This document shows positions 1-57,878 of a stretch of DNA of 64,000 nt, in pieces. This stretch comes from a virus: the IMG/VR virus record IMGVR_UViG_3300045988_079296, positions 32,001 to 96,000 of that record, one strand, 5' to 3'. Both the position numbers and the translations under genes were made by a program. The notes under the pieces were generated by a model. That model did no database searches. It worked only from the letters and a program-made list of their open reading frames with translations, and was not told the DNA's origin. Numbering within the stretch: position 1 is the stretch's first letter; every line of letters begins with the position of its first letter.

Positions 1-788
1 ATACCCGCTCCACCTGCTGAAATCATGAACCGTTGTTCATCGTTATCCAAGAACTCCAAATATTGTTCGTTCAAGTCTTGTACTACTTCAACTGGGTCTT
101 TGTAGTCCTTCTCCTTTTTCTTCATCCGATAAACAAACTGGTCGTATTTGATACGTCCTTCTTTCGTTTTCAGATTGAACATTTTCTTGACACGGTCATC
201 GTTTTTGTCCAAATACCACTTCTCGGTGATTTTCGTTCCATCCGTTCCTCCCTCGTCTGCATCATCGTCAATATCTACGCTTGCATACTGATTGGTTGGA
301 GCTACATCGTCCTCATCATCGTCAGTTCCTGTGGTGGTTGAAGAAGAACTCTTTTTGCCCGTCATTTTCATGAGTTGAGCCAACGTTCCCGAAGTATCAA
401 CCTGAGACATGTCAAAACCTCTTGATTCCAAAGCGTCATAGGCAATCTTTCTCATTTGAGCGTTGCCGTTCTTACTATTAGCAACTTTCAAAAGGTTGTC
501 ATCGGAAGTCTTTTGAGCCCAAACTACTAATTGCTGTGAGTTCATAGCTTTACCGCCTTGAGCCTTTGCGTTGGCTATTTGTTGCGCTGACGGTTTTGAA
601 GGGGTTTTCTTTGCTCCACCTCCAGAGGCATTGTCGTCATCATCCTCCGAACCCGAAGAACTTCCACTTGCTTGTTTCTTGTTCTTAATCGGTCTCCAGT
701 CAAATTTGCCAGGCTTATACTCTGTCCAAACCCAAGGTTTGGATGGGTGAGTGTCACCTACCTGACGTGCTTTTTTAATTTCGTCCAT
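1..788 (-). CDS. hypothetical charged protein, truncated by left window edge
   Basis: ATG at 788-786 and the frame stays open to position 2. It is absent from the ORF track because there is no stop inside the window. Translation starts MDEIKKARQVGDTHPSKPWVWTEYKPGKFDWRPIK and continues with acidic/Ser-rich linkers. It supersedes + ORF 33-341 and - ORF 575-757. Confidence 0.6.
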   Translation of the reverse strand, partial: MDEIKKARQVGDTHPSKPWVWTEYKPGKFDWRPIKNKKQASGSSSGSEDDDDNASGGGAKKTPSKPSAQQIANAKAQGGKAMNSQQLVVWAQKTSDDNLLKVANSKNGNAQMRKIAYDALESRGFDMSQVDTSGTLAQLMKMTGKKSSSSTTTGTDDDEDDVAPTNQYASVDIDDDADEGGTDGTKITEKWYLDKNDDRVKKMFNLKTKEGRIKYDQFVYRMKKKEKDYKDPVEVVQDLNEQYLEFLDNDEQRFMISAGGAG

Positions 789-846: not shown

Positions 847-2286
847 TCAATCAGTCTCCCATTCAATTGGAAGTTCTATACCATAGAAGTCCTCCATGAT
901 TTCCTTAGTTATCTTCTTAACATTTGGTGAATCCTTTCCTTTTTCAAGCTCCTTGTTAACAAGTTTTTCGCCTCCCTTAACAAGTCTGATAACCTCTTTC
1001 ATGTTATTCTTAGCATTAAAGACTTCATGAACCAAGGCATAATTCTCCAACGTATCTTTCAAATACTTCGCTGGACTCATCTTGTTCGCTTTCGCCAGAG
1101 CCTTCGCAAATTCCTTCGGAGTAGCATCCCAAGGAATAATGATTGCGTTGATGCTATCGAATAACGGGTCACACACTTCTTCGGTCATACCCTTTATCAG
1201 TCCTCTATAATCACGCAAAACTGGATAACAACCGTTCAACATAGCTTCTATAATGAAGCCGTTAATATGAGTTCGACAATATTGAGAATAATGAGCCGCC
1301 CAAGAAGGGTCAACGGCAAATCGACTTCTTCGGAGCTTCGCTGTAACTTCCTTAGAACTTATCTGCCCAAGATACTCCATACCATATTGTTCCGCTACAT
1401 CCCAAATCTTTTGTCCAATATATTCTTCACTAATGTCAGGGTCACGCTTTCGGCTGACCTTGTAAGGCTCTTTGCATTTCGTAGGAGCTACCATATATGC
1501 TTGTTCTATTCCCGAACCTGCTATTTGAACAGAATACTCGGAGTTTTTATTGAAATGCGGTACGGCTCTGATAAGGTCGTCAACGTGCTTCATGGACTTG
1601 AATATATGAGCGGCAAAGAAGTCAATATCACGCTTCGGTTTCATTACAATAGGCATCTTCGCCTTATCGTCCAAATATCTCGGATTAAGCAACAGAACTC
1701 TCGGTATTCCTAAATGCTCGCAGCAACGATATGCAGCAACGTGAGCGCATTCTATGAACAATATCTTCTCCCGTAAAGCCGTAATATTTGAGGCACGTAC
1801 ATCAAAGTAAGCATCGTGAGCAATGAATATTTGTTTTATCTTATCGGTTGGTAAATCGTAGAACTTCCACCAAAATGAAAAGTCTCTATCTCCCCAAGCA
1901 CTTGACTTAGTAGGCATAAAGTTCCACATTATTAAATCGAAGTTATCTACAAGATTATGCCAACGTTCAAGAGCGTTTGGTTCAAATACTCCGATACGAT
2001 TGCTGGGTGGTAAGAAAAACCCATAATAATTATTCTTCCAATATCCCGTTGCTTCATCATATTCATACCCTCCGTTTTGGGAATTGATTTTCAACTTCTC
2101 GGAGAACGTTCCATTTTCAAGTTTCTTGACCTTACTGTCGTAGGTCTTTTGCGTAGTTGCGGCGCAAGACAATTGGGCTATATCGACAACGTGGCCAAGA
2201 GCTTTTAATGCCTTGACCTTCGCTGTTACGTGTTCAATTATTCCTCCGTACTTAGCAATCTCAAAATCTGCTATAAGTATTCTCAT
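847..2286 (-). CDS. GT-B fold glycosyltransferase (GT4-like)
   Basis: 479 aa. The N-terminus MRILIADFEIAKYGGIIEHVTAKVKALKALGHVV fits the GT4 N-terminal pattern. C-terminal NGFIIEAMLNGCYPV resembles the EX7E segment. ATG at 2286. Confidence 0.6.
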   Translation of the reverse strand: MRILIADFEIAKYGGIIEHVTAKVKALKALGHVVDIAQLSCAATTQKTYDSKVKKLENGTFSEKLKINSQNGGYEYDEATGYWKNNYYGFFLPPSNRIGVFEPNALERWHNLVDNFDLIMWNFMPTKSSAWGDRDFSFWWKFYDLPTDKIKQIFIAHDAYFDVRASNITALREKILFIECAHVAAYRCCEHLGIPRVLLLNPRYLDDKAKMPIVMKPKRDIDFFAAHIFKSMKHVDDLIRAVPHFNKNSEYSVQIAGSGIEQAYMVAPTKCKEPYKVSRKRDPDISEEYIGQKIWDVAEQYGMEYLGQISSKEVTAKLRRSRFAVDPSWAAHYSQYCRTHINGFIIEAMLNGCYPVLRDYRGLIKGMTEEVCDPLFDSINAIIIPWDATPKEFAKALAKANKMSPAKYLKDTLENYALVHEVFNAKNNMKEVIRLVKGGEKLVNKELEKGKDSPNVKKITKEIMEDFYGIELPIEWETD

Positions 2287-2289
2287 AAT

Positions 2290-2976
2290 CTAAAATGGTA
2301 AATCTGAATCGTACCTTCTCCAAATTTCTTCGGGAAGGTTTTTCTTTATATAACCCTGCTCGTAAAACAATAAACCTGATTGTGAACGATAGAATTTGGA
2401 TGCTAATTTCCACTTAATATCCGCAAACTCTTCAACGGGAACTGAACGAGATAAATACCAATCTTCCTTTTGCTCTTTTACTTGCGCTTGAGAACGTCTC
2501 TTGTAAGAGTGCGGGAACTCCCGATAATAGTCCATGTCAGAGAAGTGAGTTTGTAACGTTTCCCGAACGAATAAGTGGAACGGGTGTCCAACCCCCCAAG
2601 GAGCAAGAACCTTGTACCCTTTATTCTTTTTCAAGAACTTTCTTACCCATTCAACCAACGCATCTTCAATCTCGGTTAATGTCTCACGTCCGAAGTATTG
2701 ATTCAGGTATTTATAAGCATTTTCCAAGGTGACTCCCTTCGGGTATGCCTTATTATACCCGTAATAACTTTCATCCTTGAAATCAAGCTCCAAATGATGA
2801 TACGGGATATTTAAAAACTCAAATAGCTTCGCATCCTCCGCTACTCTCTTCTCATCATTCTCAACGTTCAAAACTTGAACTTCATATTCGGGGAAGAATA
2901 GTACATGAGAACAGCAGAATAAAGCATCGTCCGAATGCGGAGCTACTATGAGATATTTTTGTTTTATTTTTCCCAT
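2290..2976 (-). CDS. PIG-L/LmbE-family de-N-acetylase-like protein
   Basis: 228 aa. LIVAPHSDDALF matches the family AHPDD-type motif, and a later GHPFH looks like a metal-ligand motif. It overlaps the upstream gene by 13 nt. Confidence 0.55.
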   Translation of the reverse strand: MGKIKQKYLIVAPHSDDALFCCSHVLFFPEYEVQVLNVENDEKRVAEDAKLFEFLNIPYHHLELDFKDESYYGYNKAYPKGVTLENAYKYLNQYFGRETLTEIEDALVEWVRKFLKKNKGYKVLAPWGVGHPFHLFVRETLQTHFSDMDYYREFPHSYKRRSQAQVKEQKEDWYLSRSVPVEEFADIKWKLASKFYRSQSGLLFYEQGYIKKNLPEEIWRRYDSDLPF

Positions 2977-3920
2977 TTCCTTCTTACGATAATAGGAGAT
3001 AAAAAGCCATCTTTGTGCACACTTTGTGCTAACTTCTTGACCTCTGGAGTTATCTCTGGCAAAGTCTCTTGACCCGAACTATCAGGCAAGAACCCTACAC
3101 GCATACTAATATTCGTACAACCACTACAAGGTCGGAAGTTACGACTGTAATTGTAGAGCATAATTCTCGCAGCTCGAAAACGTTCATGATTCCAAAGCTC
3201 TACAATCCCCATGTCGTTGATATTAGCAATCGGATATTCCCCACGGAAGTCATCGCAACATAAAGAAACGTTGCCATCGTATCGGAAAGCTAATTCACGG
3301 AAAGGCATAGCACAACGCTTGTTGTTATACGACTTATCCAACGGAGCTGCTGCACCGCAATGATTGGCAAGTTTACGTGTTATCTTGTTGTCCTCCTTAA
3401 TCGGTGGCAATAACAATATTCTCGGTTTCTTGTTGTTAGTGTACAACGGTATTCCCTTTTCATAGAATACAACGTTCCACGCCCCTTCGGGAAGTTTATT
3501 TACAAAATTCCAATCTCCCTCGTCCGTATAACAATCCACGATAAGATTGTTTATTCCAGCATCGAAAAGGCTCTCAACATATTCCTCTGTATTCTCGGCT
3601 CTATTTGCCGCATAACCGTTCGTGTACATATGTAAAATAGCATTCGGCAATTCCTCTCGGAATATCTTTACTATTTCCATAATCTTCGGATTCAACGTTG
3701 GCTCTCCATGCTGAGCGAATACTATTTTGCTATTCCAACCTGCTTTAGCAATCTCGCTCGCTATTCTCTTTGCGGTTTTGATACTCATGTGATTCCAAGG
3801 TTTCGTTCCTTTTTCACGCATACCTCTCAACCCACAGAAAGAGCATCCCAAATTACATCCTTCGGTTGGTTCAATTAGCACCGTGAACGGTGCTTGTTGT
3901 ACAATTTTCTTTTTAGCCAT
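2964..3920 (-). CDS. radical SAM enzyme with SPASM/twitch-like C-terminal Cys cluster
   Basis: 318 aa. CNLGCSFC is the CX3CX2C motif near the N-terminus. The C-terminal region reads CAMPFRELAFRYDGNVSLCCDDF...RPCSGC. Confidence 0.8.
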   Translation of the reverse strand: MAKKKIVQQAPFTVLIEPTEGCNLGCSFCGLRGMREKGTKPWNHMSIKTAKRIASEIAKAGWNSKIVFAQHGEPTLNPKIMEIVKIFREELPNAILHMYTNGYAANRAENTEEYVESLFDAGINNLIVDCYTDEGDWNFVNKLPEGAWNVVFYEKGIPLYTNNKKPRILLLPPIKEDNKITRKLANHCGAAAPLDKSYNNKRCAMPFRELAFRYDGNVSLCCDDFRGEYPIANINDMGIVELWNHERFRAARIMLYNYSRNFRPCSGCTNISMRVGFLPDSSGQETLPEITPEVKKLAQSVHKDGFLSPIIVRRKWEK

Positions 3921-11946: not shown

Positions 11947-13050
11947 CTATAATGATTTTGTTTTCGGTACAAATTTACTTCGTTGCTTACCCTCTCCGAT
12001 AATCATCTTCCAATACTTCTGAAATTCGCAAAGCCACATTTCAATTTGGTGAAGAGTTATATTGGGCTCATCTGACGTGTAATATTCTCCGTCCTCCATA
12101 TCCCAATACAGATAGGGAAAGTTTTCTTTTTTCTCTTCGCTTATTCTTCCCAACCATTCTTCTGCCAAATCTCTTAACCAATATATGGCAGGTTTTTGTT
12201 CTCGGAGCGTAGAAAGGTTTGGATATATGAGACGAATGCCGATACTACACCCTGGCCCAACGTTCGTGAAGTCGTTTTGGTCAAACTTCATAAAACGTCT
12301 GCCCGTGTACTTCGGTATATATGTGAAGTCCTGATAGAACTCATGAGCAATAAAATCGGCTACCGCAGGGAACGTTTTCAAGTACTCAATAATCTCTTCT
12401 GGCTTCTTAGCGGTCATCACCTTAGCAATGAGCTTATCCATGTTCTTATGCAGATGCGGAATAACAACCCTTGTATAGCAATAGTCTCTCGGTTGACCAG
12501 GTGTTGCTTGAGAGTTAATCAAGTAAGCAGTTGTATAAGGGTTTTGCCCCGAACTACGAACGCCAGCAATGAAACGGCTGAACTCGTCCTCATCGTATTC
12601 ATCCCAATCGGGTATGCCGTTCTTCCACTTTGTAGCCGCAATCAATTCGTCTTTCGATTGAGCTTGTTTTAATCCCGATTTCACTGGTGCTCCAAATAAG
12701 CTCGGTTGAAGTGTTTTTCCTTTCGGCTCAAACATAAACGTTTCGGGGCAATTAAAGAAGCGGAAAACCATCATCTTCCAAACCAAGTTCTTCAACGACA
12801 AACTTTCGTCAAGAAGAATGTTCTTGATTTGCCATTGACTATTTCGGTCAAGCTCCCGATACACGTTGGTGAACTTTGACTCTTGAAAAATCTTGTTCTT
12901 TGTCCAAGGTCGTTCTTTCCCGTCTATGAACCTCCGTTTCCATATAAGCTGGCGTTCATACATAGTCTCAAAGAACAAACGCAAATGAGGCTCGTACACC
13001 TCAAGATTTTCGTCAGGTAACTTATCGTACCATGCTGCATTTTCAAACAT
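11947..13050 (-). CDS. candidate alpha-glutamyl/putrescinyl-thymine pyrophosphorylase-like (aGPT-Pplase-like) DNA base-modification enzyme
   Basis: 367 aa. The segment ERQLIWKRRF..GKERPWTKNKIFQESKFTNVYRELDRNSQW resembles, from memory, the conserved N-terminal block of aGPT-Pplase families. This was not verified by a search. Confidence 0.4.
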   Translation of the reverse strand: MFENAAWYDKLPDENLEVYEPHLRLFFETMYERQLIWKRRFIDGKERPWTKNKIFQESKFTNVYRELDRNSQWQIKNILLDESLSLKNLVWKMMVFRFFNCPETFMFEPKGKTLQPSLFGAPVKSGLKQAQSKDELIAATKWKNGIPDWDEYDEDEFSRFIAGVRSSGQNPYTTAYLINSQATPGQPRDYCYTRVVIPHLHKNMDKLIAKVMTAKKPEEIIEYLKTFPAVADFIAHEFYQDFTYIPKYTGRRFMKFDQNDFTNVGPGCSIGIRLIYPNLSTLREQKPAIYWLRDLAEEWLGRISEEKKENFPYLYWDMEDGEYYTSDEPNITLHQIEMWLCEFQKYWKMIIGEGKQRSKFVPKTKSL

Positions 13051-16339: not shown

Positions 16340-17821
16340 TCAAGCTACAAAGTCCTTGACGAACCCAAGATAATGTTTCGCCCTCGTATAAGCTACATAA
16401 ACAAGATTGCTTTCTTGCTCTGCCATCCAAGGAACGTTCATGCAAGGCTTAAACCACAACTTATCTTCGCATATGATAAATACTCGGTCACTCTCCAACC
16501 CCTTCGATTTATGAATGGTGCTTAGACAAATACCCGATTTATTTCCATCGGAGAAGATTGTTTCAATACGGTCAATAACTTCTTTGGCGGTTTGTAATCC
16601 TTCGGAAAGAACCTCAATTGCTTTGACCTTATCTTCGTATCTTTTATAAACATCGCTCTCCCGTGCTTCCTTTTCGGTGCATTTCTGCTTGCTAACCACC
16701 TTTCCTATTATCCGTGATAATTCTCTCTGGAGACGTTCTTCCACGTCCTTAATCTGCTTGCGATTGGTCTTTTTAATCATATTAACGAGATTGGTTCCAA
16801 TATCCCTTCCCTTAACATATGCTTTAACTCCCGAACTGATATATTTCATACATAAATCTACCAAAGGAGCTGTGAGACGGCAAAGCACCATATCTCCGTC
16901 TTGTATCTCGGATAAAGTTGCATTGCGATTTACCATTCCCGAAGGAGCATTATCACGTGCTTCTATTTGGGGCACGATACTTTTGGCAAGGTCAATTATG
17001 TCCTTATCGCAACGGTAGCATACCGATAACGGAAGTTTAACCGTGCCAGGAATTTTCTTTAACAAATTGAAACTCTCAACGTCCGCTCCTGCGAACCCGT
17101 ATATTGCTTGTCTTGGGTCGCCTACTGCAATGAACCTTCCTCCGTTCGGCTTAACGCATTTCAAGAATAATTCCCGTTGAGCTGCATTAAGGTCTTGGCA
17201 CTCGTCTATAAATACCCAATCATATTTGAATATTTTCAATTGCTTAACGTTCGGGAAGTATATCATGTCGGTAAAGTCTATGAAAGCTGTTTCCCGTTCT
17301 CCCCATTGAATACCTTTGAGAGCCAAATCGGCTTCGTTATCTAAGAGGTCAATATCATGCTTGTAAGAAAGGTCTTCAAGTTCAGCTACGGTCTTGACTA
17401 AATTACATCTGCCAAGGTCTATAAGTTTGAGAATATTTTGCTTCCAAGCTCCCATTTGCTCATCGGGAAGAGGAACTGACGGAACTAAGTTTGAATAATT
17501 TACTCCGTTATTAACCCAAACCCGATACTTATCATCTTGAATTTGACAATCTAAGTTTCTCATACATAAAGAAGCTCCAAGACTGTGTAAGGTCTTTATA
17601 TCTACGTTGGGCATATTCCCTATTTTGATTTTCAGCTCTTCCACGATAGCCTTATTGAAAGCCAAGAACAAAACTCTTTTCCCTTTCGGAATTTGTTTCA
17701 ACGCTTCTACTATTGTTGTAGATTTACCCGAACCCGCCACTGCGTCTATAACCGCATTGCCCTTACCTATCCGAATGTAGGTGTAAACAGTTCTTTGATA
17801 TTTGCTTGGTAAAAATGCCAT
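16340..17821 (-). CDS. UvrD/Rep/PcrA-like SF1 helicase (paralog 1)
   Basis: 493 aa. Motifs seen: AVAGSGKSTT, VFIDECQDLN, VGDPRQAIYGFAGA, LSTIHKSKGLESDRVFI and VAYTRAKHYL. Confidence 0.9.
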   Translation of the reverse strand: MAFLPSKYQRTVYTYIRIGKGNAVIDAVAGSGKSTTIVEALKQIPKGKRVLFLAFNKAIVEELKIKIGNMPNVDIKTLHSLGASLCMRNLDCQIQDDKYRVWVNNGVNYSNLVPSVPLPDEQMGAWKQNILKLIDLGRCNLVKTVAELEDLSYKHDIDLLDNEADLALKGIQWGERETAFIDFTDMIYFPNVKQLKIFKYDWVFIDECQDLNAAQRELFLKCVKPNGGRFIAVGDPRQAIYGFAGADVESFNLLKKIPGTVKLPLSVCYRCDKDIIDLAKSIVPQIEARDNAPSGMVNRNATLSEIQDGDMVLCRLTAPLVDLCMKYISSGVKAYVKGRDIGTNLVNMIKKTNRKQIKDVEERLQRELSRIIGKVVSKQKCTEKEARESDVYKRYEDKVKAIEVLSEGLQTAKEVIDRIETIFSDGNKSGICLSTIHKSKGLESDRVFIICEDKLWFKPCMNVPWMAEQESNLVYVAYTRAKHYLGFVKDFVA

Positions 17822-17980: not shown

Positions 17981-18262
17981 CTATACATTTAAAATCAAAT
18001 TGTCGCTTTTCAAAAGTCCTTCCAGCTTTTCTTCGGTAGGTATCCAGCCGCAAACAAAGACAATCGTTTCTCCTTGAGCTTTTGCAGCCTTATGCCAAGC
18101 ATCTGATAGCTTCTTGAACCTTTGGTTGTGCATATAAAAATCGAAGTCTGAAACGGATATTTCCCACCAACTTCTATTCTTGTATGCGTAGGCAATCAAA
18201 CCATCTTGCATTCCTTCTACCTTTTGGAGTATGCTCAAAATAAAATCTTCAATCTTCTTCAT
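17981..18262 (-). CDS. hypothetical protein
   Basis: 93 aa with an ATG start. Confidence 0.5.
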   Translation of the reverse strand: MKKIEDFILSILQKVEGMQDGLIAYAYKNRSWWEISVSDFDFYMHNQRFKKLSDAWHKAAKAQGETIVFVCGWIPTEEKLEGLLKSDNLILNV

Positions 18263-18860
18263 ACATGAATTTGTTGAACTCTTCTTCTCCGATAACTAAC
18301 TTCAACCGCTCGGATAACAAACTGAGGTGTACTTCCTCGTCCGCAATCAGCTTAGACGTTAATTGCATTGCTATCGTCATTGTCTTGGAATAGTTCTCCG
18401 ATACTTCAGATATTCTCGCTTGAATACCTTCGTAGAAACGGATTGTTTCTTGCTCGGCTGTTATCGCTATCTTCAACGCTTCTTCTGCGTCTTTCCCAAC
18501 CTTTACGCCTGAGTTTACAAAACGTTGGTCTATCTTACCGCCTAACTTACGAATGAAGTCTGAAAGTTTATCGTAGTGCTTCATTTCAGTCATTCCAATA
18601 CCCAACATCAGCTCTCCTATATCTTCAAAAGTCGCTTCTTGGGTAGTGTACATATGTATGGCTGTAAGCTCGGAGAAAGAGTTTGAACCGTTATGTATCG
18701 GATAGAACCATTCAGCTGCTACTCCGTCATCCGCTTTCGCCCCATCATACTCTGGATATTCATAATCGGGGTTTGAATAGCGCATAGCATTTACCAACCC
18801 GTCAGTAAGGTCGTCAAGTTGATTTTTGCTCAACGGCTTCATTTTCGCAAAGTCTTTCAT
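18249..18860 (-). CDS. ferritin-like di-iron carboxylate superfamily protein
   Basis: Four-helix pattern E..(ELTAIHMY), ExxH (EMKHYDKL), E (AEQETIRFYE), ExxH (DEEVHLSLL). The track start at 18869 is TTG, so ATG 18860 is used (alternative ATG at 18842). Confidence 0.45.
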   Translation of the reverse strand: MKDFAKMKPLSKNQLDDLTDGLVNAMRYSNPDYEYPEYDGAKADDGVAAEWFYPIHNGSNSFSELTAIHMYTTQEATFEDIGELMLGIGMTEMKHYDKLSDFIRKLGGKIDQRFVNSGVKVGKDAEEALKIAITAEQETIRFYEGIQARISEVSENYSKTMTIAMQLTSKLIADEEVHLSLLSERLKLVIGEEEFNKFMYEED

Positions 18861-19053
18861 ATTCCTCAATTTTTCTTTGTTTATCTTCTTCGGTCATATT
18901 GCAAGTGCGTCCTATAATGTTACTTGATAATATCTTCACGCTTCCATCAGGCTGCTTTTGCATCATAGTTTCAACGGCAAAGTCGTTACCTTGACCGAAG
19001 TCAACCCCGATAAACAAACCTTTGCCGTTGGTGAATTGTTGGAACTGTCTCAT
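18814..19053 (-). CDS. hypothetical protein
   Basis: 79 aa. Its ATG overlaps the dUTPase stop as TAATG. Confidence 0.45.
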   Translation of the reverse strand: MRQFQQFTNGKGLFIGVDFGQGNDFAVETMMQKQPDGSVKILSSNIIGRTCNMTEEDKQRKIEEYERLCENEAVEQKST

Positions 19054-19508
19054 TATTTCATTCCCGTGTGTCCATAACCTCCCGCACCTCTCTCGGAGTC
19101 ACGCTGAAAGCCTTCTACTGGTTTCCATGTAGCTTGGAATAAACCGCCTGAGCCGTTGCACACCGCCTGAGCAATTCTCTCCCCTCTCTTAACAACAAAC
19201 GTCTCGTTGCTGAGATTAATCAAAGGCACTCCAACTTCTCCTTGGTAGTCGGCATCTATTGTGCCAGGTGCGTTGATAACTGTTATGCCTTTCTTAACAG
19301 CCAAACCGCTTCTCGGTCTTATCTGCATTTCGGCATCCGTAGGTAGCTCAACATATACTCCCGTAGGAACAACGCAACGTTCCATGGGTTGAAGTACAAT
19401 GTCATTAACGTTTGCAGCATACAAATCTGCTCCTGCCGAAAGTTCGGTTGCATAATAGGGAAGTTTACCAAAACCTTTGATAATAATTCTTACGTCTCTC
19501 TTTTCCAT
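19053..19508 (-). CDS. dut: dUTP pyrophosphatase
   Basis: 151 aa. Motifs seen: SAGADLYA, RSGLAVKKGITV.NAPGTIDADYQGEVGV, GERIAQ and RGAGGYGHTG. Confidence 0.95.
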   Translation of the reverse strand: MEKRDVRIIIKGFGKLPYYATELSAGADLYAANVNDIVLQPMERCVVPTGVYVELPTDAEMQIRPRSGLAVKKGITVINAPGTIDADYQGEVGVPLINLSNETFVVKRGERIAQAVCNGSGGLFQATWKPVEGFQRDSERGAGGYGHTGMK

Positions 19509-28071: not shown

Positions 28072-28497
28072 TTATTTTGCCATTCTCACAACTATCTCCA
28101 CATCTGAAAAGTCGCTTGCAAAAGAACAAGAACGAATATCATAGGAATGACTTCCAGTGTTAATCGTAGTAAGCACCAAAGGATAATAAGTCAACACGCT
28201 TAACTCGGTAGGAGCGGATGTCAAAGCATAAGACGTTACAAGGTTTGAAGCTGCCTGACCTCCGAAGCGTTCAGATACTATTTTAACCGTCATAGGAACG
28301 TCAGAGGATGCTTGTATGCTCACTTCTGTCTCCGTCTTTAAGGAGATTATGAGATTCAAGTTTCCTATCTTAGCATTGATGGGAGCGGTCTTTAAGTTTC
28401 CGTTTAAAACTATCGGCTTGTAACTTACAAAGTCCAATCCTCCTTCTACTCCATTGTCAATCTCTTCTCCCGTATATGCGCTTTGATAATCTTCCAT
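28072..28497 (-). CDS. hypothetical protein
   Basis: 141 aa with an ATG start. Confidence 0.5.
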   Translation of the reverse strand: MEDYQSAYTGEEIDNGVEGGLDFVSYKPIVLNGNLKTAPINAKIGNLNLIISLKTETEVSIQASSDVPMTVKIVSERFGGQAASNLVTSYALTSAPTELSVLTYYPLVLTTINTGSHSYDIRSCSFASDFSDVEIVVRMAK

Positions 28498-28655
28498 TAT
28501 TGTTTAACTTTAAATTTGTTTCCTCCTTTTGTCGCAAAAGTTTCACCGCTGGAAGTTTTCAAATATCCCTTTCCTTCAACTGGCGGAGAAGTGCTTGGTT
28601 TGAGTTTTGTGCTTCCGCTCAACTTACCAATTGAACCTAACTTACCAACTCTCAT
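28497..28655 (-). CDS. small Gly/Lys/Ser-rich protein (below ORF-track cutoff)
   Basis: 52 aa, MRVGKLGSIGKLSGSTKLKPSTSPP.... Its stop overlaps the next ATG as TAATG. Confidence 0.3.
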   Translation of the reverse strand: MRVGKLGSIGKLSGSTKLKPSTSPPVEGKGYLKTSSGETFATKGGNKFKVKQ

Positions 28656-28659
28656 GGCA

Positions 28660-28923
28660 TCAATACATTACGTTAATAGAACCCGAAACAAGTTCCAATT
28701 TAGAGTCAATGTAGAAATATTCCGTTTCTCCTTCGGATATTACTACACCATCACCTGGCTGGTTTTCCAAGCGAATAACGGCATCACCGCCAGTCGCCTT
28801 AACTCGGATAAACTGATTGGGAGTTATTTGCTCTACAACTCCTGCTGCGCTTACGTTCAAACCCATACTTAGACGGGCAACTTGTACGGAGCGACTGTTT
28901 GCATCTACATAAAGACTTTTCAT
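28660..28923 (-). CDS. hypothetical protein
   Basis: The track start at 28959 is TTG inside a terminator. ATG 28923 (MKSLYVDAN) is preferred. Confidence 0.5.
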   Translation of the reverse strand: MKSLYVDANSRSVQVARLSMGLNVSAAGVVEQITPNQFIRVKATGGDAVIRLENQPGDGVVISEGETEYFYIDSKLELVSGSINVMY

Positions 28924-28929
28924 ATTTTT

Positions 28930-28975
28930 ACAAATTAAAAAAGGAGTATAAAACCCCAATGTTGTTATACTCCTT
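28930..28975 (-). terminator. rho-independent terminator
   Basis: Perfect 11-bp stem aaggagtataa (28941-28951) / ttatactcctt (28965-28975). On the minus strand it is followed by ttttttaattt. Confidence 0.8.
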
Positions 28976-28984
28976 TAATAGTTG

Positions 28985-29227
28985 TTATTGTTTGACTCTT
29001 ATCCTGGGCGGGTTATGCTCGTCCAGCGTGTTCCCGTCCTTCCTCATTTCGTACCGAAGTGTATCAAAACCCAATTCCACACGTTCATATTTCCAAACTC
29101 TCATAATTACGGTTGTATCTGTTCTTGATACTTCCTCTTTGTACGTTACTTTCGTTGGGTCTTTGTCGGAACATTCCGTCAGGAATAAGAACCCAAGAAA
29201 GCATAAACATAGAAAATACATTTTCAT
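28985..29227 (-). CDS. small secreted protein, possible lipoprotein
   Basis: 80 aa. The signal peptide MKMYFLCLCFLGFLFLTEC is followed by SDKD. Glu at -1 is atypical for a lipobox. Confidence 0.45.
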   Translation of the reverse strand: MKMYFLCLCFLGFLFLTECSDKDPTKVTYKEEVSRTDTTVIMRVWKYERVELGFDTLRYEMRKDGNTLDEHNPPRIRVKQ

Positions 29228-29385
29228 AGGTCGTGTATTTTTAATCCGTTAATAACTTCCCAACCTTCGGAGCGGAGTTTGTCTTCAACTTTGTCTCGGC
29301 TCTCCGCTTCCACTTCGGTCTTTTGTAACTTGATTTGTTCTTTTCGGCTTCTACTACCGAAAAATTTGACTTTAAACTTCTTCAT
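29224..29385 (-). CDS. small protein (below ORF-track cutoff)
   Basis: 53 aa, MKKFKVKFFGSRSRKEQIKLQ.... It has an ATGA overlap with the next gene. Confidence 0.3.
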   Translation of the reverse strand: MKKFKVKFFGSRSRKEQIKLQKTEVEAESRDKVEDKLRSEGWEVINGLKIHDL

Positions 29386-29599
29386 ATTCTACATCAATTG
29401 CTCTTGCTTTCATTTTGTCCAAACTCGCTCTTTGTTCTGGTGTGAACCGCTTCTTCGGCTCTCCTTCCCATTTCTCTTCGGGTTGAGTATTATCGTAGTA
29501 AGTACGATTGCGCCAAGTCTCTCTTGACATGTTATCACTCATTCCCGAAGTCCTGTACATAAATTCAAACCATTCATCTATCCAATCGAACCTTCCCAT
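29372..29599 (-). CDS. hypothetical protein
   Basis: 75 aa with an ATG start. Confidence 0.45.
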   Translation of the reverse strand: MGRFDWIDEWFEFMYRTSGMSDNMSRETWRNRTYYDNTQPEEKWEGEPKKRFTPEQRASLDKMKARAIDVEYEEV

Positions 29600-39025: not shown

Positions 39026-39280
39026 TTACGTTTTGTGATATTCTTTCTTTAATCGTAAACGACGCAAGTGTATTACTATTGCAGGATGCGTTGGTAATAT
39101 AGGTTCATACTCTGATATACGAATAATTTCCCAATCATCTTTCTTATCTATTGCGTTAGCTATTGCGTAGCGTTTGAGTTTAGAGAAAAGAAAGATGCGG
39201 AACTCTTTTGTATTGTCTTTTTTGAGCTCCGCAGTTTCGTCATAACTTAGAATGAGTTTCTTTAGTTTTGCTTCTGTCAT
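39026..39280 (-). CDS. hypothetical protein
   Basis: 84 aa with an ATG start. Confidence 0.45.
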   Translation of the reverse strand: MTEAKLKKLILSYDETAELKKDNTKEFRIFLFSKLKRYAIANAIDKKDDWEIIRISEYEPILPTHPAIVIHLRRLRLKKEYHKT

Positions 39281-39861
39281 TTTCTTTTTAGAATATTTTC
39301 AAACTTCTTTCCGTATTTCTCGTAATAAGCAAGCATTTGTTCCAATCTTTGGGCGGGAACTCTTTTTGATTCTTCTCTCTCGGAATTTCTTTCAAAACAA
39401 AGCCATAAAGGAACATCAAAGAAGCTCTTGTACTCTATTTCTACATAATCCCGATACTTAGAATTATCAATTGCTTTCTTTATCAATTCTGCTCCTGACG
39501 AATATATGTTTGTATCATCTACAATAACGTCCATGTGGTTACTTTGGTCTATTGCACAAACTGTTATCTTTCTCCGTATATCTTGAAGCATTGGCGGTTG
39601 AGGCAATTCCTTCCTTGCCGTCTCAACTATCTCTCTTTTTGTTAAGTCATCCGCAAGAGGTTTTAAAAGTTCCAACGCCAATTCCTTCGCTTCCTCAAAT
39701 TGGTCTGCCGTTAGGGGTTGGCGAACACTACCTGCTTTGAAGGAAGGATAACGGCTGCAAGTCATCGAAGCTCTGTCAGACGTTATGCAAATTGTTATTG
39801 ACCTCCCTTCTTCCTCGCATACAAAGAATTGATTATTTACATGATAATAAGTCTTTTCCAT
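39277..39861 (-). CDS. hypothetical protein
   Basis: The track ORF to 40026 overlaps the upstream gene by 163 nt. ATG 39861 (MEKTYYHV) lies 2 nt after the upstream stop. Confidence 0.5.
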   Translation of the reverse strand: MEKTYYHVNNQFFVCEEEGRSITICITSDRASMTCSRYPSFKAGSVRQPLTADQFEEAKELALELLKPLADDLTKREIVETARKELPQPPMLQDIRRKITVCAIDQSNHMDVIVDDTNIYSSGAELIKKAIDNSKYRDYVEIEYKSFFDVPLWLCFERNSEREESKRVPAQRLEQMLAYYEKYGKKFENILKRK

Positions 39862-39863
39862 AC

Positions 39864-40304
39864 CTACATTTTGTTTAATATTCCATATATTACTTTCGTT
39901 TTCAAATAACCTTGTATCTCCCTTTGATAATGATAACCATCTTCCAATGGCGTCAATTCTTTCGTAGGTAGGAGCTGGGTTGCCATAGCAAAGTCTATCT
40001 TTGGAAGTCCGCAACCGTTCAACCAACGCTCTATCTTATCCGATACCTCAGCCCAAACTCCACCTCGCTTCAAGAGGTCGTGAAACTCTTCTATCAGCAT
40101 CCGCTTTGCTTCTTTGGTTTGGAGACTTCCCGACATACATACTTTCTTACCCCAAGGAGTGTCTTTCATTATGATTATCGCTTTCGGTCTTGCACTATTC
40201 GGACTAAAAAGCAATTTCCAATACTTTTCGTCATTGTAGAGCAACTTATCTACGTTCCGATATAAGAACCCTTCAGACGTTCCCGAATATGACTCAGAAA
40301 GCAT
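39864..40304 (-). CDS. hypothetical protein (frame open upstream to 40406 through the GA tract)
   Basis: The first ATG is at 40304 (MLSESYSG). The track start at 40406 is TTG. The upstream 34 codons are stop-free and protein-like. Confidence 0.45.
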   Translation of the reverse strand: MLSESYSGTSEGFLYRNVDKLLYNDEKYWKLLFSPNSARPKAIIIMKDTPWGKKVCMSGSLQTKEAKRMLIEEFHDLLKRGGVWAEVSDKIERWLNGCGLPKIDFAMATQLLPTKELTPLEDGYHYQREIQGYLKTKVIYGILNKM

Positions 40305-52188: not shown

Positions 52189-52497
52189 TTATTCTTTTTC
52201 TTGTTCTTCTTTTTCCTCTTCTTCAAGAATGTGTAACCCGATAACGGCATAACCGATAATGTCCTTTAGAGTGTCTTGGATGCTCTCAAAATTCGGCTCT
52301 TCTCCCTTTAATCGGTTTTCCACCATGTTTCTTAACCTTGATGTTTTGTCCCAAATATGAACCATGTTGCCGTTCATACCCAAATCAAAACTCGCTCCTT
52401 TGTAGTCTTTGTTTTTCTTTAACAAGATTTCAGTCATGCCATCAAAGATGCCATTGATACTTTCTCTCGTCATTTCTTCACCTTTCTTCTTACTCAT
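52189..52497 (-). CDS. DUF1599 / nucleotide-modification-associated domain 1 (MazG-fold) protein
   Basis: 102 aa. KNKDYKGASFDLG...IWDKTSRLRNMV...DTLKDIIGYAVIGLHIL fits the DUF1599 pattern as I remember it. Confidence 0.5.
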   Translation of the reverse strand: MSKKKGEEMTRESINGIFDGMTEILLKKNKDYKGASFDLGMNGNMVHIWDKTSRLRNMVENRLKGEEPNFESIQDTLKDIIGYAVIGLHILEEEEKEEQEKE

Positions 52498-53131
52498 CGT
52501 TAAATAAGTTTTTTAAATTATACAATTCGGTTATGTTAATCTCCACATCGGGGAAATTTATTTTCAAACTGTTTATAACAGCATCAACCGCTTTCGGGAA
52601 ATTTTGTTTTGCTCTCTCCCATTGTTCATCCAATCCTCTATTACCCAATGAACGTTCTCTTTTCATATAGAAGTAAAGAGCCATCCAATCGCATAGTTTA
52701 GCGAACTTCTTTTCAGGCTCTGGGCAAGCGCAAACCATAGATAACATCATATTTGATGCATCGGTATCTGTTCCGTGTTCGTCTGTTTCCTTGAACTCCC
52801 TTAACGCTATATGCTTTGATAGATTGTCAAGAACTCTTCTGACTTCCTCTCCGTTGTAGTCGTTATACTTAGTTTCATGGGACATATCCCGAAGTATCAA
52901 TGCTTCATCCCAATCGTGGAAGATAGCTCTTGAAACTACATCCAACTTAAACAATAATACCTTCGGGTCAATACTATGACCAAATACATCCTCCAATAAA
53001 ACTCTTGCGAATACCGCATCTTTATAAGAGTGTTGACTCACGCTTTCTTCCTTGAAAACGTCCATTTCCTGCCACTGCTTAATATTATCAAGTCTGTGCA
53101 GATACTTACTTTTGATAATCTTGTTTAACAT
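52490..53131 (-). CDS. HD-domain phosphohydrolase, YfbR-like 5'-deoxynucleotidase
   Basis: 213 aa. ESVSQHSYKDAVFARVL (H) plus AIFHDWDEALILRD (HD...D) parallels YfbR NVAEHS.../LFHDASE..TGD. Confidence 0.65.
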   Translation of the reverse strand: MLNKIIKSKYLHRLDNIKQWQEMDVFKEESVSQHSYKDAVFARVLLEDVFGHSIDPKVLLFKLDVVSRAIFHDWDEALILRDMSHETKYNDYNGEEVRRVLDNLSKHIALREFKETDEHGTDTDASNMMLSMVCACPEPEKKFAKLCDWMALYFYMKRERSLGNRGLDEQWERAKQNFPKAVDAVINSLKINFPDVEINITELYNLKNLFNDE

Positions 53132-53133
53132 TT

Positions 53134-53149
53134 CAATTTGATTTACGAT
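53134..53149 (-). promoter_or_regulatory. conserved leader motif copy 5 (caatttgatttacgat)
   Basis: 2 nt upstream of ATG 53131, within the 11-nt gap after dnaE. Confidence 0.65.
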
Positions 53150-56100: not shown

Positions 56101-56682
56101 TTCTTGGTTTTGTTTATCTTTTGAATAGTCCTTCGCTACCGTTATTGTTTCACCGATAACGGACTTCACGCCATACTTATCGCAGAAGGTCTGAAAGGAT
56201 AACGCTCCAGCCAACGTATTTCGGTCACATATCCCCAACGCCTTAACTCCAACAAACTTTGCTTTCTTTGCCCATGTATCGCAACCTCCCGAACCATTCA
56301 ATATTTCATATTCGGTATGTACACCAAGATGTGCAAAGTCCATTATGTACTCTTCGCTAATTTTACCAAGATACTTGAAGTCCAAGAATTGTGGCTTGAA
56401 GATAATTTCGTTGTATCGGTTTTTATCCTTCTTTATTCCCGAATAATAGAACTTGCTTCCAAATTCAAAGAGGATGTATTTGACTTTCCCCTCGTCCAGC
56501 ATATCAAATTCTTCATCTGAAAGGATAAACCCAAAGTCCTCGTCAATTATTTTACCATCAAAAGGATGAAGATACAAAAAGTCTCCAACCTCTTCGATAG
56601 AGATAATATCAGAGCCGTCCAACGTTGACTCTGATATTACCATGTGATTATCTTCTATCCACTTTTGTAGATTTTCCGTCAT
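53143..56682 (-). CDS. dnaE: DNA polymerase III alpha subunit (DnaE family, PHP domain)
   Basis: 1179 aa. The PHP N-terminus is HLGVHTEYEILNGSG and the palm/fingers region includes GRGSVCGSLVAYCLHITDVDP, PDIDVDF and FNKSHAAAYS. There is an N-terminal extension of about 110 aa. Confidence 0.95.
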   Translation of the reverse strand: MTENLQKWIEDNHMVISESTLDGSDIISIEEVGDFLYLHPFDGKIIDEDFGFILSDEEFDMLDEGKVKYILFEFGSKFYYSGIKKDKNRYNEIIFKPQFLDFKYLGKISEEYIMDFAHLGVHTEYEILNGSGGCDTWAKKAKFVGVKALGICDRNTLAGALSFQTFCDKYGVKSVIGETITVAKDYSKDKQNQETFELKFYILNYEGWKNLLLINKAVNVTYNGFIPESELLELGKGLVCVIPKESEFNYIKDDKKETIKLIAKYKKHFTRVYYQVDTVEFVSDNLFKKHLENIDTYICNYKKLLKPILINDSYYLDREMHELKGVINKVLGKAAPEAINQYFKTCGETFEEYSDWLEEVEPLFQTIVEGIENATLLVDKVDFKIPSGEKKLPAFEVDDAVGLFFDMVEKGANERLGHLPKKELAIYMKRLEIECNVIVPNDLVDYFMILWDIINWCKKRGIMVGTGRGSVCGSLVAYCLHITDVDPLKYGLMFERFLNETRVSGERAKSADSMPDIDVDFPTEHRDAVKNYIKEKYGYDYTCSIGTYTRMKLKTCLKDFGKVKGIPFDTMNKLTKDIDDQIEYTWGDLLEYASKSKALFKFVQENPDIVHLTKYGMLQCKAASVHPSAAIIVPKHTVDGTNRPIDIWEWMPVKMIDGVLVSEWEGKYIDKSGFLKEDILGLNQLDKFKNMEVLIQKNYGKKIDWNAIPLDDEETFKYFKRGWNEDVFQFGTQGLMNYSRQVKPDTLAQLIAMTALFRPGPMELNAHSDFADIKNGKKKPTYDFGMEEITAETFGLYVYQEQIMKGVVVGGLTEVESDILRTTIKKKDVKTLSSYGEKFKKGYSELLRKNKIEKPDEYAEKVWAKLLAFSGYGFNKSHAAAYSIMSYWSQYMKVNYPLEFWTTALQFSKEGEVPYRLAELKKTGAEIEIRPPDVNFSAQTFTCDPKEQRIFFSLTKIKDVGEKVVPYIIEEREKGGKFFSLEEFVERVPSKVNKKVIERLIVAGAFDIVENLKNPRDRKKLLQWFAEYKKADIAKEYQTEEANKNSFWVFEQKRLTGFGEVDYETMIRDAIPNKRVAKLYVNDFEFANTKEGREATIAGKLIYYQERQIKNGTMVSVNIDCNNTIIPVTLWPDAVDRLPENISEYKNRVVAICGRVKKDKFKNQKVLYSDERTKIYIIS

Positions 56683-57878
56683 AGCTTACCAAGATATTTA
56701 TGCTTCATTGGTTTACTTAACCTTGCTGCAAAGAAGTTCTTTGCTAATATCGACATATCCCAACCGTCCGCACCTTCGGCTTCCAACAACTCAATCTCGG
56801 CAATAGCGGTCTTTCTTATCGCATCCTTTTCAAGAGCCGTTTTTGCAAGCGTCATTTTCTGCTTGTAGAGCACGTATATCTTCAAGAGCTGATAAACGTT
56901 ATAAAAGTAAGTTGAAAACTCTTGTAGCTGCTTAATTTCATCTTGTACGTCAGTCTCTCCGTTCTTTACCCTCATAAGGTTTTCGATAACGATATTCAAG
57001 TGAGCATCTACCTCTCTGAGACGGTTGACCGCTACTTCGTGAGAGAACGCAAAGTCCATCGGTCTTGCTTCGGCTTCGGTTGCCTCATAGAGCGAATGAC
57101 CCATGCCTTGTTGTTGGTATATCTCGTCCATCTTTTGAGCCGTACCATTCCAATCATAAATATGTAAGCTCTGGGAGTTGTGAGTTTGCGTTCCTAACTC
57201 AATACCTAAACAACGGCACATTATCTCGGTAAGGAAGGAGAATTGGAATATGTTCGTAGGCAATCCCCAATGAAGGTCGTTACTTCGGTTTGCGATAGTA
57301 GTTATCAATTTGCCCTTCCGAACTTTCAACTTTATGAGGTCATTGCACGGTATATCCTTACTTTTTGCCCCAAGGTCAAAACTTGGATTCCAAATCGCCA
57401 TTACAACTTGTCTGGTATTCATATTCTCGGATAACAAACGAACCGCATCTGCTACTTGGTCATATCCTTGAGCTGCCGTTACTCCGTTCTCATATTTATC
57501 CTCCGTCCGAATACCCCAGTGGCGAAGTCTGAACCCGTAAGGAGCGTGGAATGTTTTGCCATCATCAGAAAAGTCTTTCATTCGTGCGTTGAAGATTTCC
57601 AAAAATTCCAAATCTTTTCTTCCTACGGCTATCCACATAGCTTCGGCAAGAAGGAAGAAGATGTTTATATCTCTTCCATAACCGCCAACACACCTCGCAA
57701 TGGGATTGGTGATAATAGTTTTGATGTCTAATAATTCTTTAGCATCCCCAGCACGGCTCTCTTCGCTTTCTTGGTTGTTCAAGATGTAGTTATTAATCAC
57801 TGGATAGAGTGCTCCAAATTCCTCCACTTTTGCTACTCCGTAGTCAGGCAGGAAACAATTTGTCTTTGGTAGTCCCAT
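56679..57878 (-). CDS. thymidylate synthase superfamily enzyme (ThyA / pyrimidine hydroxymethylase-like, divergent)
   Basis: 399 aa. DIPCNDLIKLKVRKGKLITTIANRSNDLHWGLPTNIFQFSFL aligns to ThyA [40 protein letters not shown]. The folate/W80-region is divergent. A helical C-terminal extension of about 100 aa is present. It has an ATGA overlap with dnaE. Confidence 0.8.
   Translation of the reverse strand: MGLPKTNCFLPDYGVAKVEEFGALYPVINNYILNNQESEESRAGDAKELLDIKTIITNPIARCVGGYGRDINIFFLLAEAMWIAVGRKDLEFLEIFNARMKDFSDDGKTFHAPYGFRLRHWGIRTEDKYENGVTAAQGYDQVADAVRLLSENMNTRQVVMAIWNPSFDLGAKSKDIPCNDLIKLKVRKGKLITTIANRSNDLHWGLPTNIFQFSFLTEIMCRCLGIELGTQTHNSQSLHIYDWNGTAQKMDEIYQQQGMGHSLYEATEAEARPMDFAFSHEVAVNRLREVDAHLNIVIENLMRVKNGETDVQDEIKQLQEFSTYFYNVYQLLKIYVLYKQKMTLAKTALEKDAIRKTAIAEIELLEAEGADGWDMSILAKNFFAARLSKPMKHKYLGKL

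Follow-up and report, generated by a model that had tools for sequence, protein, structure and literature searches.

Introduction

What use does a phage have for a radical S-adenosylmethionine (SAM) enzyme, a de-N-acetylase and a glycosyltransferase (GT) that are encoded one directly after the other beside its structural genes? The locus that raises this question lies in IMGVR_UViG_3300045988_079296, an uncultured gut phage of ~100 kb, of which we analyzed positions 32,001–96,000, a stretch of 64,000 nt referred to here as the window. On balance, we favor the answer that the gene block serves the post-replicative hypermodification of DNA in a phage that contains 5-hydroxymethyluracil; the specific product predicted from the family assignments, a hexosaminyl 5-hydroxymethyldeoxyuridine (HexN-hmdU), is put forward with less confidence than the DNA-directed role itself. 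An earlier interpretation, made without database searches and called the sequence-only reading here, had proposed an amino-sugar tailoring module at this locus.

Enzyme classes of the three gene products

ORF listing reproduced the arrangement described by the sequence-only reading to the nucleotide, i.e., three minus-strand open reading frames (ORFs; Table 1), with a 13-nt overlap between the radical SAM and deacetylase ORFs (2964-2976) and a 3-nt gap between the deacetylase and GT ORFs (2287-2289). Because each of the three proteins has hundreds of full-length homologues on phage-like metagenomic contigs of 90-127 kb, we regard all three ORFs as real genes. The enzyme classes originally assigned to them proved right at the superfamily level in Pfam, profile, fold and family-wide tests.

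The 318-aa protein belongs to the Radical SAM superfamily. It scores 58.9 bits against PF04055 (E-value 9.5e-16; cut-off 29.5), and all of 20 diverse members, the most distant at 49% identity, retain the motif C22-X3-C26-X2-C29. The protein had been called SPASM-type, and it does match the Pfam SPASM domain (PF13186, 9.3e-12, 45.5 bits, cut-off 21.5). In the 20-member alignment, however, the only other invariant cysteines are C203, C221, C222, C265, and C268, while C188 varies. Since these suffice for one auxiliary cluster and not for two, the cysteine pattern places the protein among the twitch-type enzymes with a single, BtrN-like auxiliary cluster rather than in the true SPASM subfamily, which has seven cysteines and two auxiliary clusters. 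BtrN (4m7s/4m7t) is also its best sequence match in the PDB (3.6e-11), and C203, C221, C265, and C268 align to the auxiliary-cluster cysteines of BtrN. The NCBIfam twitch-domain model matches residues 200-274 at 6.6e-11, under its full-length cut-off. Orthology with BtrN, a 2-deoxy-scyllo-inosamine dehydrogenase, was rejected: identity amounts to ~25% in two local stretches, and none of the window ORFs profiled proved to be an aminoglycoside gene.

Radical SAM matches in Campylobacter phages were likewise rejected as members of the same system. They belong to a separate cluster with several radical SAM genes, which in phage CPt10 (L253, 72665-85402) comprises at least six such genes and an amidinotransferase-like gene. 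One of the encoded radical SAM proteins is 23% identical to that of the window, and no LmbE or GT family member was found in the cluster. BFVD lists an LmbE-like protein in Campylobacter virus IBB35, a relative of CPt10.

The AlphaFold2 model of the 228-aa protein has a pLDDT of 94. Its only significant Foldseek match in the PDB is the teicoplanin deacetylase 2xad (E-value 1.9e-6, probability 1.0, TM-score 0.59), and all five significant matches in BFVD are LmbE/PIG-L-type proteins. Narrow profiles of close relatives (alignments A1 and A2) gave no matches against the PDB; matches came with broadened alignments alone, for the 479-aa protein as well as here. With its broadened alignment, the family profile of the 228-aa protein found Dbv21 (3dfi, 4.7e-5) and Orf2. 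The PHSDD and GHPFH motifs of the phage protein align with PHLDD and HPDH, respectively, of Dbv21/Orf2, and P13-H14-S15-D16-D17 and H131-P-F-H134 are invariant in alignments of 43 and 29 sequences. PF02585 is matched by 27 of the 29 family members at E<1 (best 5.1e-6). From its predicted structure and its motifs, we assign to the 228-aa protein the LmbE/PIG-L fold with an intact set of zinc-binding and catalytic residues.

For the 479-aa protein, 98 diverse family members were compared with Pfam, and 32 match PF00534 (best 2.6e-12), 14 Glyco_trans_1_4, and 13 Glyco_transf_4. The family profile matches GlgA (1.2e-8) and BshA (4e-7, 2e-6, and 1e-4) in the PDB. In the EX7E region, E347 (…FIIEAM…), at the place of the second glutamate, aligns with the EAM of GlgA, and the first position is occupied by a residue other than Glu (T339/H340). 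Foldseek, run on a model with a pLDDT of 57, returned GT-B enzymes for all of its top 50 matches, at TM-scores of about 0.3; the fold matches of this low-confidence model include T4 AGT and the protein-glycosylating GT4 enzymes SdgB and GtfA. The family is small, with 198 clusters found by an exhaustive profile search in 1.84 billion representatives, and is seen only on phage or phage-like contigs. On this profile evidence the 479-aa protein is accepted as a divergent GT-B, GT4-like enzyme. Profile searches keep the 479-aa protein within the GT4-like (GlgA/BshA) group, and profile and structure searches keep the 228-aa protein within the PIG-L (2xad, Dbv21) group, where the sequence-only reading had placed them.

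A conserved deacetylase–glycosyltransferase pair

We surveyed 80 IMG/VR loci anchored on the deacetylase (32-92% identity). The deacetylase and GT4-like genes directly follow a MuF-like gene in 75 of them, whereas a radical SAM gene is present in 26. The pair is therefore the conserved core and the radical SAM gene is facultative, so that the expected triad holds as a unit for its deacetylase and GT only. The earlier suggestion that sugar transfer followed by deacetylation is the logic of the pair is a reasonable one. The MuF-like gene stands directly upstream of the cassette in nearly all loci and serves as a syntenic anchor. Over 20 kb, the most distant phages share with the window only portal, MuF, deacetylase, and GT. 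A further gene, which encodes an aGPT-Pplase-1-like protein, is present in every examined phage with the pair, the most distant included, and lies upstream of the portal gene wherever the flanks reach, also in the distant lineage.

In 185,579 species genomes, the deacetylase family gave three matches, all on phage-like contigs of metagenome-assembled genomes. This distribution bears on the idea that the genes serve host metabolism, either by making a BshA/BshB- or MshA/MshB-like glucosamine conjugate as a thiol-cofactor precursor or by remodeling envelope glycans for superinfection exclusion. The synthesis of bacillithiol and that of mycothiol canonically begin with a GT4 enzyme followed by an LmbE-type enzyme, and BshA structures are among the best matches of the GT profile. 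However, the family is essentially absent from cellular genomes, and the loci examined showed neither a cysteine ligase nor any other partner from such a pathway. Conservation as deep as that of portal and MuF is not what one would expect of a host-metabolism moron, there are no membrane-anchoring hints, and the genes are tightly associated with DNA-modification genes and with the TAGT family described in the next section. We consider a host-directed function highly improbable.

Several loci deviate at the pair itself. In L007 (10687-11364), and also in L008, a 225-aa ORF of the GIY-YIG homing-endonuclease type sits exactly between deacetylase and GT, and the same insertion is probable in L022, L026-L028, L051, and L066. 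A 3.2-kb insert occupies the deacetylase–GT junction in L068 and L069. The deacetylase homologue of L078 (2743-3402, 38% identity) is the sole one that lacks both an upstream MuF-like gene and, within the 3.3 kb downstream, a GT4-like gene. On the 199-kb contig IMGVR_UViG_3300029572_000001, the portal-to-cassette block occurs twice, ~100 kb apart (L139/L150 and L192/L206), most likely as the result of a head-to-tail dimer assembly of a ~100-kb genome.

Association with DNA glycosyltransferases

TAGT (PF20691) is the TET-associated glycosyltransferase family, whose T6 member has been assigned the transfer of a second glucose onto glucosyl-5-hydroxymethylcytosine (hmC) in DNA (PMC13390438). In a survey of the radical SAM family (202 IMG/VR loci, of which 80 were fetched), we found members of this family next to the cassette enzymes, in place of one of them, and fused to them. 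Adjacency is seen in unrelated phages of ~35-55 kb with PolA/D5, where 14 loci have the order TAGT, radical SAM, dNMP-kinase-like (or DUF1599), and thymidylate synthase (TS) homologue, and the genes often overlap. In relatives of the window phage, a radical SAM gene followed by a TAGT gene lies between TerL and dUTPase, on contigs that also have the deacetylase–GT pair after MuF. Replacement is seen in sister phages in the slot between the MuF-like gene and two large downstream proteins. In L190, this slot holds a radical SAM gene, an LmbE-like gene, and a separate TAGT gene (7.8e-13), with no GT4-like gene; in another variant it holds a radical SAM gene, an LmbE–TAGT fusion, and a second radical SAM gene.

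Two fusion proteins tie the families together most directly. The 507-aa LmbE–TAGT fusion of L251 (5475-6998) has its TAGT domain at residues 234-445 (1.2e-15) and retains all deacetylase motifs intact. In the 579-aa TAGT–radical SAM fusion of L241 (3324-5063), the TAGT match spans residues 42-251 (2e-19), and residues 269-579 share 47% identity with the radical SAM enzyme of the window (4e-86). The latter gene stands between an aGPT-Pplase-1-like gene and a TS homologue. It belongs to a group of compact islands on unrelated small contigs (L241, L243, L245, L247, and L249) which combine an aGPT-Pplase-1-like gene, a TAGT-like or GT4-like gene, a radical SAM gene, and a TS homologue. The order in L249 is aGPT-Pplase-1-like, radical SAM, GT4-like, and TS, and its glycosyltransferase is a member of the GT family of the window (hhalign probability 100%, E-value 7.5e-91).

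Adjacency, slot replacement, and fusion thus repeatedly tie the three enzyme types together, and tie them also to a family of DNA glycosyltransferases and to homologues of pyrimidine hydroxymethylases. The radical SAM enzyme partners equally with the GT4-like and TAGT families. It is also independent of deacetylation, since it is paired with TAGT in phages that lack the deacetylase and is kept where the deacetylase motifs are degenerate. Such degenerate motifs (PHAGD, GHPFN, and FPYSY) mark the LmbE-like proteins of one subclade (L190, 6924-7631; L188-L206, L195, L199), which, judged from these substitutions, are probably inactive. They are retained beside a TAGT or GT4-like gene, and this retention hints at a non-catalytic role as scaffold or partner.

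The sequence-only reading had offered a DNA base, a virion protein, and a host glycan as acceptors side by side; the slot replacement by TAGT, the two fusions, and the independent compact islands now clearly favor DNA. With a virion protein as acceptor, the GT would place N-acetylhexosamine (HexNAc) on capsid, portal-associated, or packaged proteins encoded nearby, and the deacetylase and radical SAM enzyme would tailor the protein-linked sugar. The location of the cassette in the morphogenesis block, after the MuF-like gene and before large polyvalent-like proteins, protease/scaffold, and lysis genes, would suit this possibility, as would the conservation of the pair, which is as deep as that of portal and MuF, and the presence of SdgB and GtfA among the fold matches. 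Against it, members of the radical SAM family, joined in L249 by one of the GT family, are found in nucleotide-metabolism islands far from structural genes, and the same slot can hold a TAGT. Moreover, we know of no LmbE-type enzyme that acts on protein-linked N-acetylglucosamine (GlcNAc). The aGPT-Pplase-1-like gene also adjoins the portal gene, and a site in the late region is therefore no argument against a DNA role. Taken together, we judge protein glycosylation to be decidedly improbable.

Nucleotide-modification genes of the window

The window contains the upstream genes that DNA hypermodification at 5-hydroxymethyluracil would call for, namely a homologue of SPO1-type dUMP hydroxymethylases, a dUTPase, a YfbR-like nucleotidase, and the aGPT-Pplase-1-like gene. 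The best cultured-phage matches of the TS homologue are SPO1 gp29, SP8, and Goe9/10 (annotated as 'deoxyuridylate hydroxymethyltransferase'), at 37-43% identity, and the protein is presumed to be a dUMP hydroxymethylase and the source of 5-hydroxymethyl-dUMP (5-hmdUMP). The dUTPase would supply dUMP and exclude dUTP, and the YfbR-like nucleotidase is a candidate dTMP-depleting enzyme. The claim that the genome carries thymidine-hypermodification-type genes thus stands for the TS homologue, the dUTPase, and the aGPT-Pplase-1-like gene, but not for a kinase. The gene labeled HMUDK_hel by Pfam was considered as the 5-hydroxymethyldeoxyuridine (5-hmdU) kinase and rejected: its product has no Walker A motif (P-loop) and is homologous to ViI gp160 and to the non-kinase C-terminal domain of SP10 gp186. 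We classify it, by homology, as an aGPT-Pplase of the clade-1 type; no clade-2 homologue, i.e., of the proven transferase type, was identified in the window. An AAA_33 ORF with a P-loop (39277-40026, 5.6e-4) was also rejected as a kinase, as it has no cultured-phage homologue and does not match validated 5-hmdU DNA kinases (5-HMUDKs).

The constant presence of the aGPT-Pplase-1-like gene with the cassette, and its position beside radical SAM and GT genes in the compact islands, raise the possibility of a small-molecule route, in which GT and deacetylase, with or without the radical SAM enzyme, would make a free amino-sugar glycoside and the aGPT-Pplase-1-like protein would graft its amine or hydroxyl onto activated 5-hmdU in DNA, which would then be the end target without being the acceptor of the GT. 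The best GT4 matches of the GT profile, BshA, use the small acceptor L-malate, and the substrate of BtrN is a free aminocyclitol. In addition, characterized aGPT-Pplase-2 paralogues transfer free small nucleophiles (glycine, serine, and putrescine) to 5-phosphomethyldeoxyuridine (5-PmdU) (PMC8989533). However, for the clade-1 protein ViI gp160 no activity is reported, while the clade-2 protein gp247 did transfer serine (PMC8989533). Such a route also requires phosphorylation of 5-hmdU, and neither the window nor any island gave a 5-HMUDK match. Finally, the GT4-like gene is interchangeable with TAGT, characterized members of which glycosylate DNA bases. We regard the small-molecule route as unlikely.

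A ferritin/rubrerythrin-like gene (18249-18869, minus strand) adjoins the dUTPase gene. In L232 and L252, a radical SAM gene, with or without TAGT, sits just upstream, between TerL and dUTPase; in L252, a gene for the anaerobic ribonucleotide reductase NrdD then follows.

Genome context

Table 1. Positions and distinguishing marks of the cassette genes, their neighbors, and the nucleotide-modification genes in the window.
Feature	Position	Strand	Marks
Radical SAM enzyme, 318 aa	3920..2964	-	CX3CX2C (C22/C26/C29) and one predicted BtrN-type twitch auxiliary cluster (C203, C221/C222, C265, C268)
Predicted LmbE/PIG-L-fold de-N-acetylase, 228 aa	2976..2290	-	PHSDD (H14, D16, D17) and GHPFH (H131, H134) invariant
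Divergent GT-B, GT4-like (Glycos_transf_1 clan) glycosyltransferase, 479 aa	2286..847	-	family-level profile matches
MuF-like gene (putative head-morphogenesis/polyvalent-protein-type), 310 aa	4854..3922	-	position, C-terminal HPxCRC-like motif, domains of homologues
5' part of next gene, cut by window end	1..788	-	start codon 788..786; homologue of 667-aa acidic Walker-A protein
aGPT-Pplase clade-1-like gene (Pfam HMUDK_hel)	11947..13050	-	PF18723 3.4e-50; no P-loop
TS homologue, nearest SPO1-type dUMP hydroxymethylases	56679..57878	-	PF00303 5.5e-24
dUTPase	19053..19508	-	PF00692 1.1e-25
YfbR-like 5'-deoxynucleotidase	52490..53131	-	PF12917 2.5e-13

A single nucleotide separates the end of the 310-aa upstream gene from the radical SAM start. 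The gene block is longer than the triad: the next minus-strand gene begins 58 nt past the GT stop, at 788, and the terminator scan found no terminator-like site after the GT gene. Promoter and terminator counts are at the level of shuffled sequence. The upstream gene had been called a head-morphogenesis gene, a label that agrees with its position, with an HPxCRC-like C-terminal motif, and with InPase or ART-PolyVal domains fused to or adjoining its homologues, but found no confirmation in Pfam, PHROGs, or the PDB, which gave no match for the protein itself. MuF-like homologues are fused to a PF18823 InPase domain in L001 and L251; in L171, it is the gene immediately before the MuF homologue that has an ART-PolyVal domain. 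These domains suggest packaged 'polyvalent' effector proteins. Past the cassette lie an acidic Walker-A protein of ~600-670 aa and a protein of ~790 aa, both large and conserved (L004, 12193-16566; L190, 8473-12618). The full-length homologue of the gene that is cut by the window end is found at L004 12193-14196. Neither of the two large proteins gave a confident family match.

The phage genes of the window include portal, large terminase, DnaE-type polymerase, helicases, RecA, and SbcCD. Two UvrD-like helicase paralogues (16340-17821 and 42751-44241), a DnaE-type Pol III alpha subunit (53143-56682), all on the minus strand, RecA, and SbcCD make up a large module for replication and recombination that is self-contained. 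The sole opposite-strand islet consists of three small plus-strand ORFs (129, 117, and 82 aa; 28483-29527); the rest of the window is coded wholly on the minus strand and its GC skew is uniformly negative. The nearest cultured terminases, at 38% identity, are those of Bacteroides thetaiotaomicron phages, and the hosts of the ~100-kb clade are probably Bacteroidota. Among 50,697 cultured phage records, megablast with the first 8 kb and tblastn with GT and deacetylase found no cultured relative.

Discussion

The acceptor, the donor, the order of steps, and the chemistry that we infer for the cassette build on how the genes are arranged, to which folds and families their products were assigned, which catalytic residues are conserved, and with which genes they are associated in genomes. 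The dUMP-hydroxymethylase homologue, the dUTPase, and the nucleotidase would ensure that 5-hmdU is made as a nucleotide and incorporated into DNA. The GT4-like enzyme would then attach HexNAc to the 5-hydroxymethyl oxygen in DNA, in the simplest case GlcNAc with UDP-GlcNAc as donor, and the zinc-dependent LmbE-type enzyme would strip the N-acetyl group to leave a cationic amino sugar in the major groove. We propose the deacetylation step because the chemistry of the LmbE family is invariant and the catalytic motifs are intact. Where present, the twitch radical SAM enzyme might tailor the sugar by hydrogen abstraction with the 5'-deoxyadenosyl radical, i.e., by dehydrogenation to a keto-sugar, epimerization, or dehydration, acting on either the DNA-bound sugar or the nucleotide-sugar donor; this is the least certain step of the proposal. 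Such a product would protect the phage genome against host nucleases, as do other thymidine hypermodifications and glycosylated hmC. The exposed amine would match known thymidine hypermodifications, which end in a free amine (PMC8989533).

Several points weigh against the DNA-cassette reading. The functional links are guilt by association throughout, the DNA specificity of TAGT rests on few studied members, and the cassette lies inside the morphogenesis block, by MuF-like and large polyvalent-like proteins, where genes for virion-protein glycosylation could sit. The co-occurrence of the pair with hypermodification genes is total within the clade and hence confounded by shared ancestry; as the pair and the aGPT-Pplase-1-like gene are both core genes of the clade, a portal-anchored co-occurrence test is uninformative. 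Taken singly, the 228-aa protein scores 14.2 bits against PIG-L (cut-off 28.2) and the 479-aa protein 18.2 bits against Glycos_transf_1 (cut-off 26.4), and the AlphaFold2 model of the latter, built from a 22-sequence alignment, is poor. Both family assignments hold despite these scores because of the profile, fold, and family-wide tests. Deacetylation would not be universal in the clade, given the degenerate motifs of one subclade. Of the genome, ~34 kb lie outside the window, and the region downstream of the GT was read for ~8.5 kb in the close relative L004.

The kinase question is a further such point. Two validated probes, ViI gp67 and the kinase domain of SP10 gp186, which match each other at 2e-26, gave no match to a 5-hmdU DNA kinase at E<=0.1 in the 64-kb window or in ~250 related loci including the islands. 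Together with an aGPT-Pplase-1-like protein that has no assigned role, the absent match blurs how the cassette relates to the canonical thymidine pathway. The lack of a detectable kinase fits a hydroxyl that is glycosylated directly and not by way of phosphate displacement.

A wider proposal, which we advance tentatively and would not be surprised to see revised, is that a widespread clade of ~100-kb phages of the gut and of anaerobes swaps thymine for a cationic 5-hydroxymethyluracil derivative that bears an amino sugar, a de-N-acetylated 'amino base J' remodeled by the radical SAM enzyme. According to this proposal, the radical SAM enzyme would be a general and hitherto unrecognized partner of TAGT in unrelated lineages, the pathway would be independent of a kinase, and the orphan aGPT-Pplase clade-1 proteins, which are uncharacterized, would gain a role. 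Our literature search turned up no account of DNA glycan tailoring by a de-N-acetylase or by a twitch radical SAM enzyme. If the proposed pathway is correct, it would provide the first de-N-acetylation and the first radical SAM tailoring of a sugar on DNA, add two enzyme classes (LmbE deacetylase and twitch radical SAM) to the DNA hypermodification toolkit, and predict that abundant, uncultured gut phages contain a new family of cationic glyco-thymidines. Among the main phage defenses against restriction enzymes and CRISPR nucleases are pyrimidines that are glycosylated or bear an amine, which are also a source of enzymes for epigenetic sequencing. DNA modified in this manner would be systematically mishandled by restriction-based, and possibly by nanopore-based, virome methods. 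For tests in vitro, the two fusion proteins offer ready constructs, as do the GT4-like and TAGT modules that take each other's place.

Comparison with known systems

The pairs BshA/BshB, MshA/MshB, and PIG-A/PIG-L share with the chemistry proposed for the phage pair the transfer of HexNAc by a GT4-type enzyme followed by the action of an LmbE/PIG-L zinc-dependent deacetylase. They differ in being cellular pathways that act on malate, inositol phosphate, and phosphatidylinositol, respectively, whereas the phage family occurs in DNA-modification contexts. In structure and in sequence, the 228-aa protein comes closest, among solved proteins, to the glycopeptide pseudoaglycone deacetylases Orf2*/Dbv21, with aligned PHxDD and HPxH motifs. 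They deacetylate GlcNAc that is already attached to a bulky acceptor. Identity to these enzymes is 14%, their acceptor is a different one, and there is no genomic relationship.

The sequence-only reading named no characterized pathway that couples a GT4/LmbE pair to such a radical SAM enzyme and thereby overlooked the synthesis of butirosin, a 2-deoxystreptamine aminoglycoside. This pathway uses BtrM (GT4), BtrD (LmbE-type deacetylase), and BtrN (twitch radical SAM dehydrogenase), and its logic is GlcNAc transfer and deacetylation plus a step in which a carbinol is oxidized by radical chemistry. One pathway thus unites all three enzyme classes of the cassette, and no solved structure matches the phage radical SAM enzyme better than BtrN; our literature search found no paper that names BtrM, BtrD, and BtrN together. 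Unlike the butirosin genes, the phage cassette stands in a DNA-metabolism context, the identity to BtrN is ~25%, and 2-deoxy-scyllo-inosose (2-DOI) synthase and aminotransferases were not found among the ORFs profiled. Context and low identity led us to reject the cassette as a member of this pathway; the resemblance is mechanistic and not one of orthology.

The thymidine hypermodification systems of ViI, M6, SP10, and PhiW-14 (Lee et al., NAR 2021, PMC8989533) have in common with the window a dUMP-hydroxymethylase homologue and a gene of the aGPT-Pplase family, and their free-amine products resemble the one predicted here. In contrast to these systems, the window phage has no detectable 5-HMUDK and only a clade-1-type aGPT-Pplase, and the group appended would be a sugar rather than an amino acid or polyamine. 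M6 gp53 provides a precedent for a radical SAM enzyme that acts in DNA modification (PMC8989533), although gp53 is SPL-like and the radical SAM enzyme of the window is of the BtrN/twitch type.

Closest in kind are the systems that glycosylate hydroxymethyl-pyrimidines, i.e., the alpha- and beta-glucosyltransferases of T4 and the T6-type/TAGT enzymes, together with base J (glucosyl-hmU) of kinetoplastids. No DNA glycosylation system is known to include a de-N-acetylase or a radical SAM enzyme, and the papers examined mention neither. The GT of the cassette is a GT4-like GT-B enzyme and not a member of GT63/GT72 or TAGT, and the predicted base is hmU rather than hmC. What these systems and the proposed pathway share is the post-replicative placement of a sugar on a 5-hydroxymethyl group in DNA, and for TAGT the likeness extends to the genes themselves, as a TAGT occupies the slot of the cassette in sister phages and is fused elsewhere to a cassette-type deacetylase or radical SAM enzyme.

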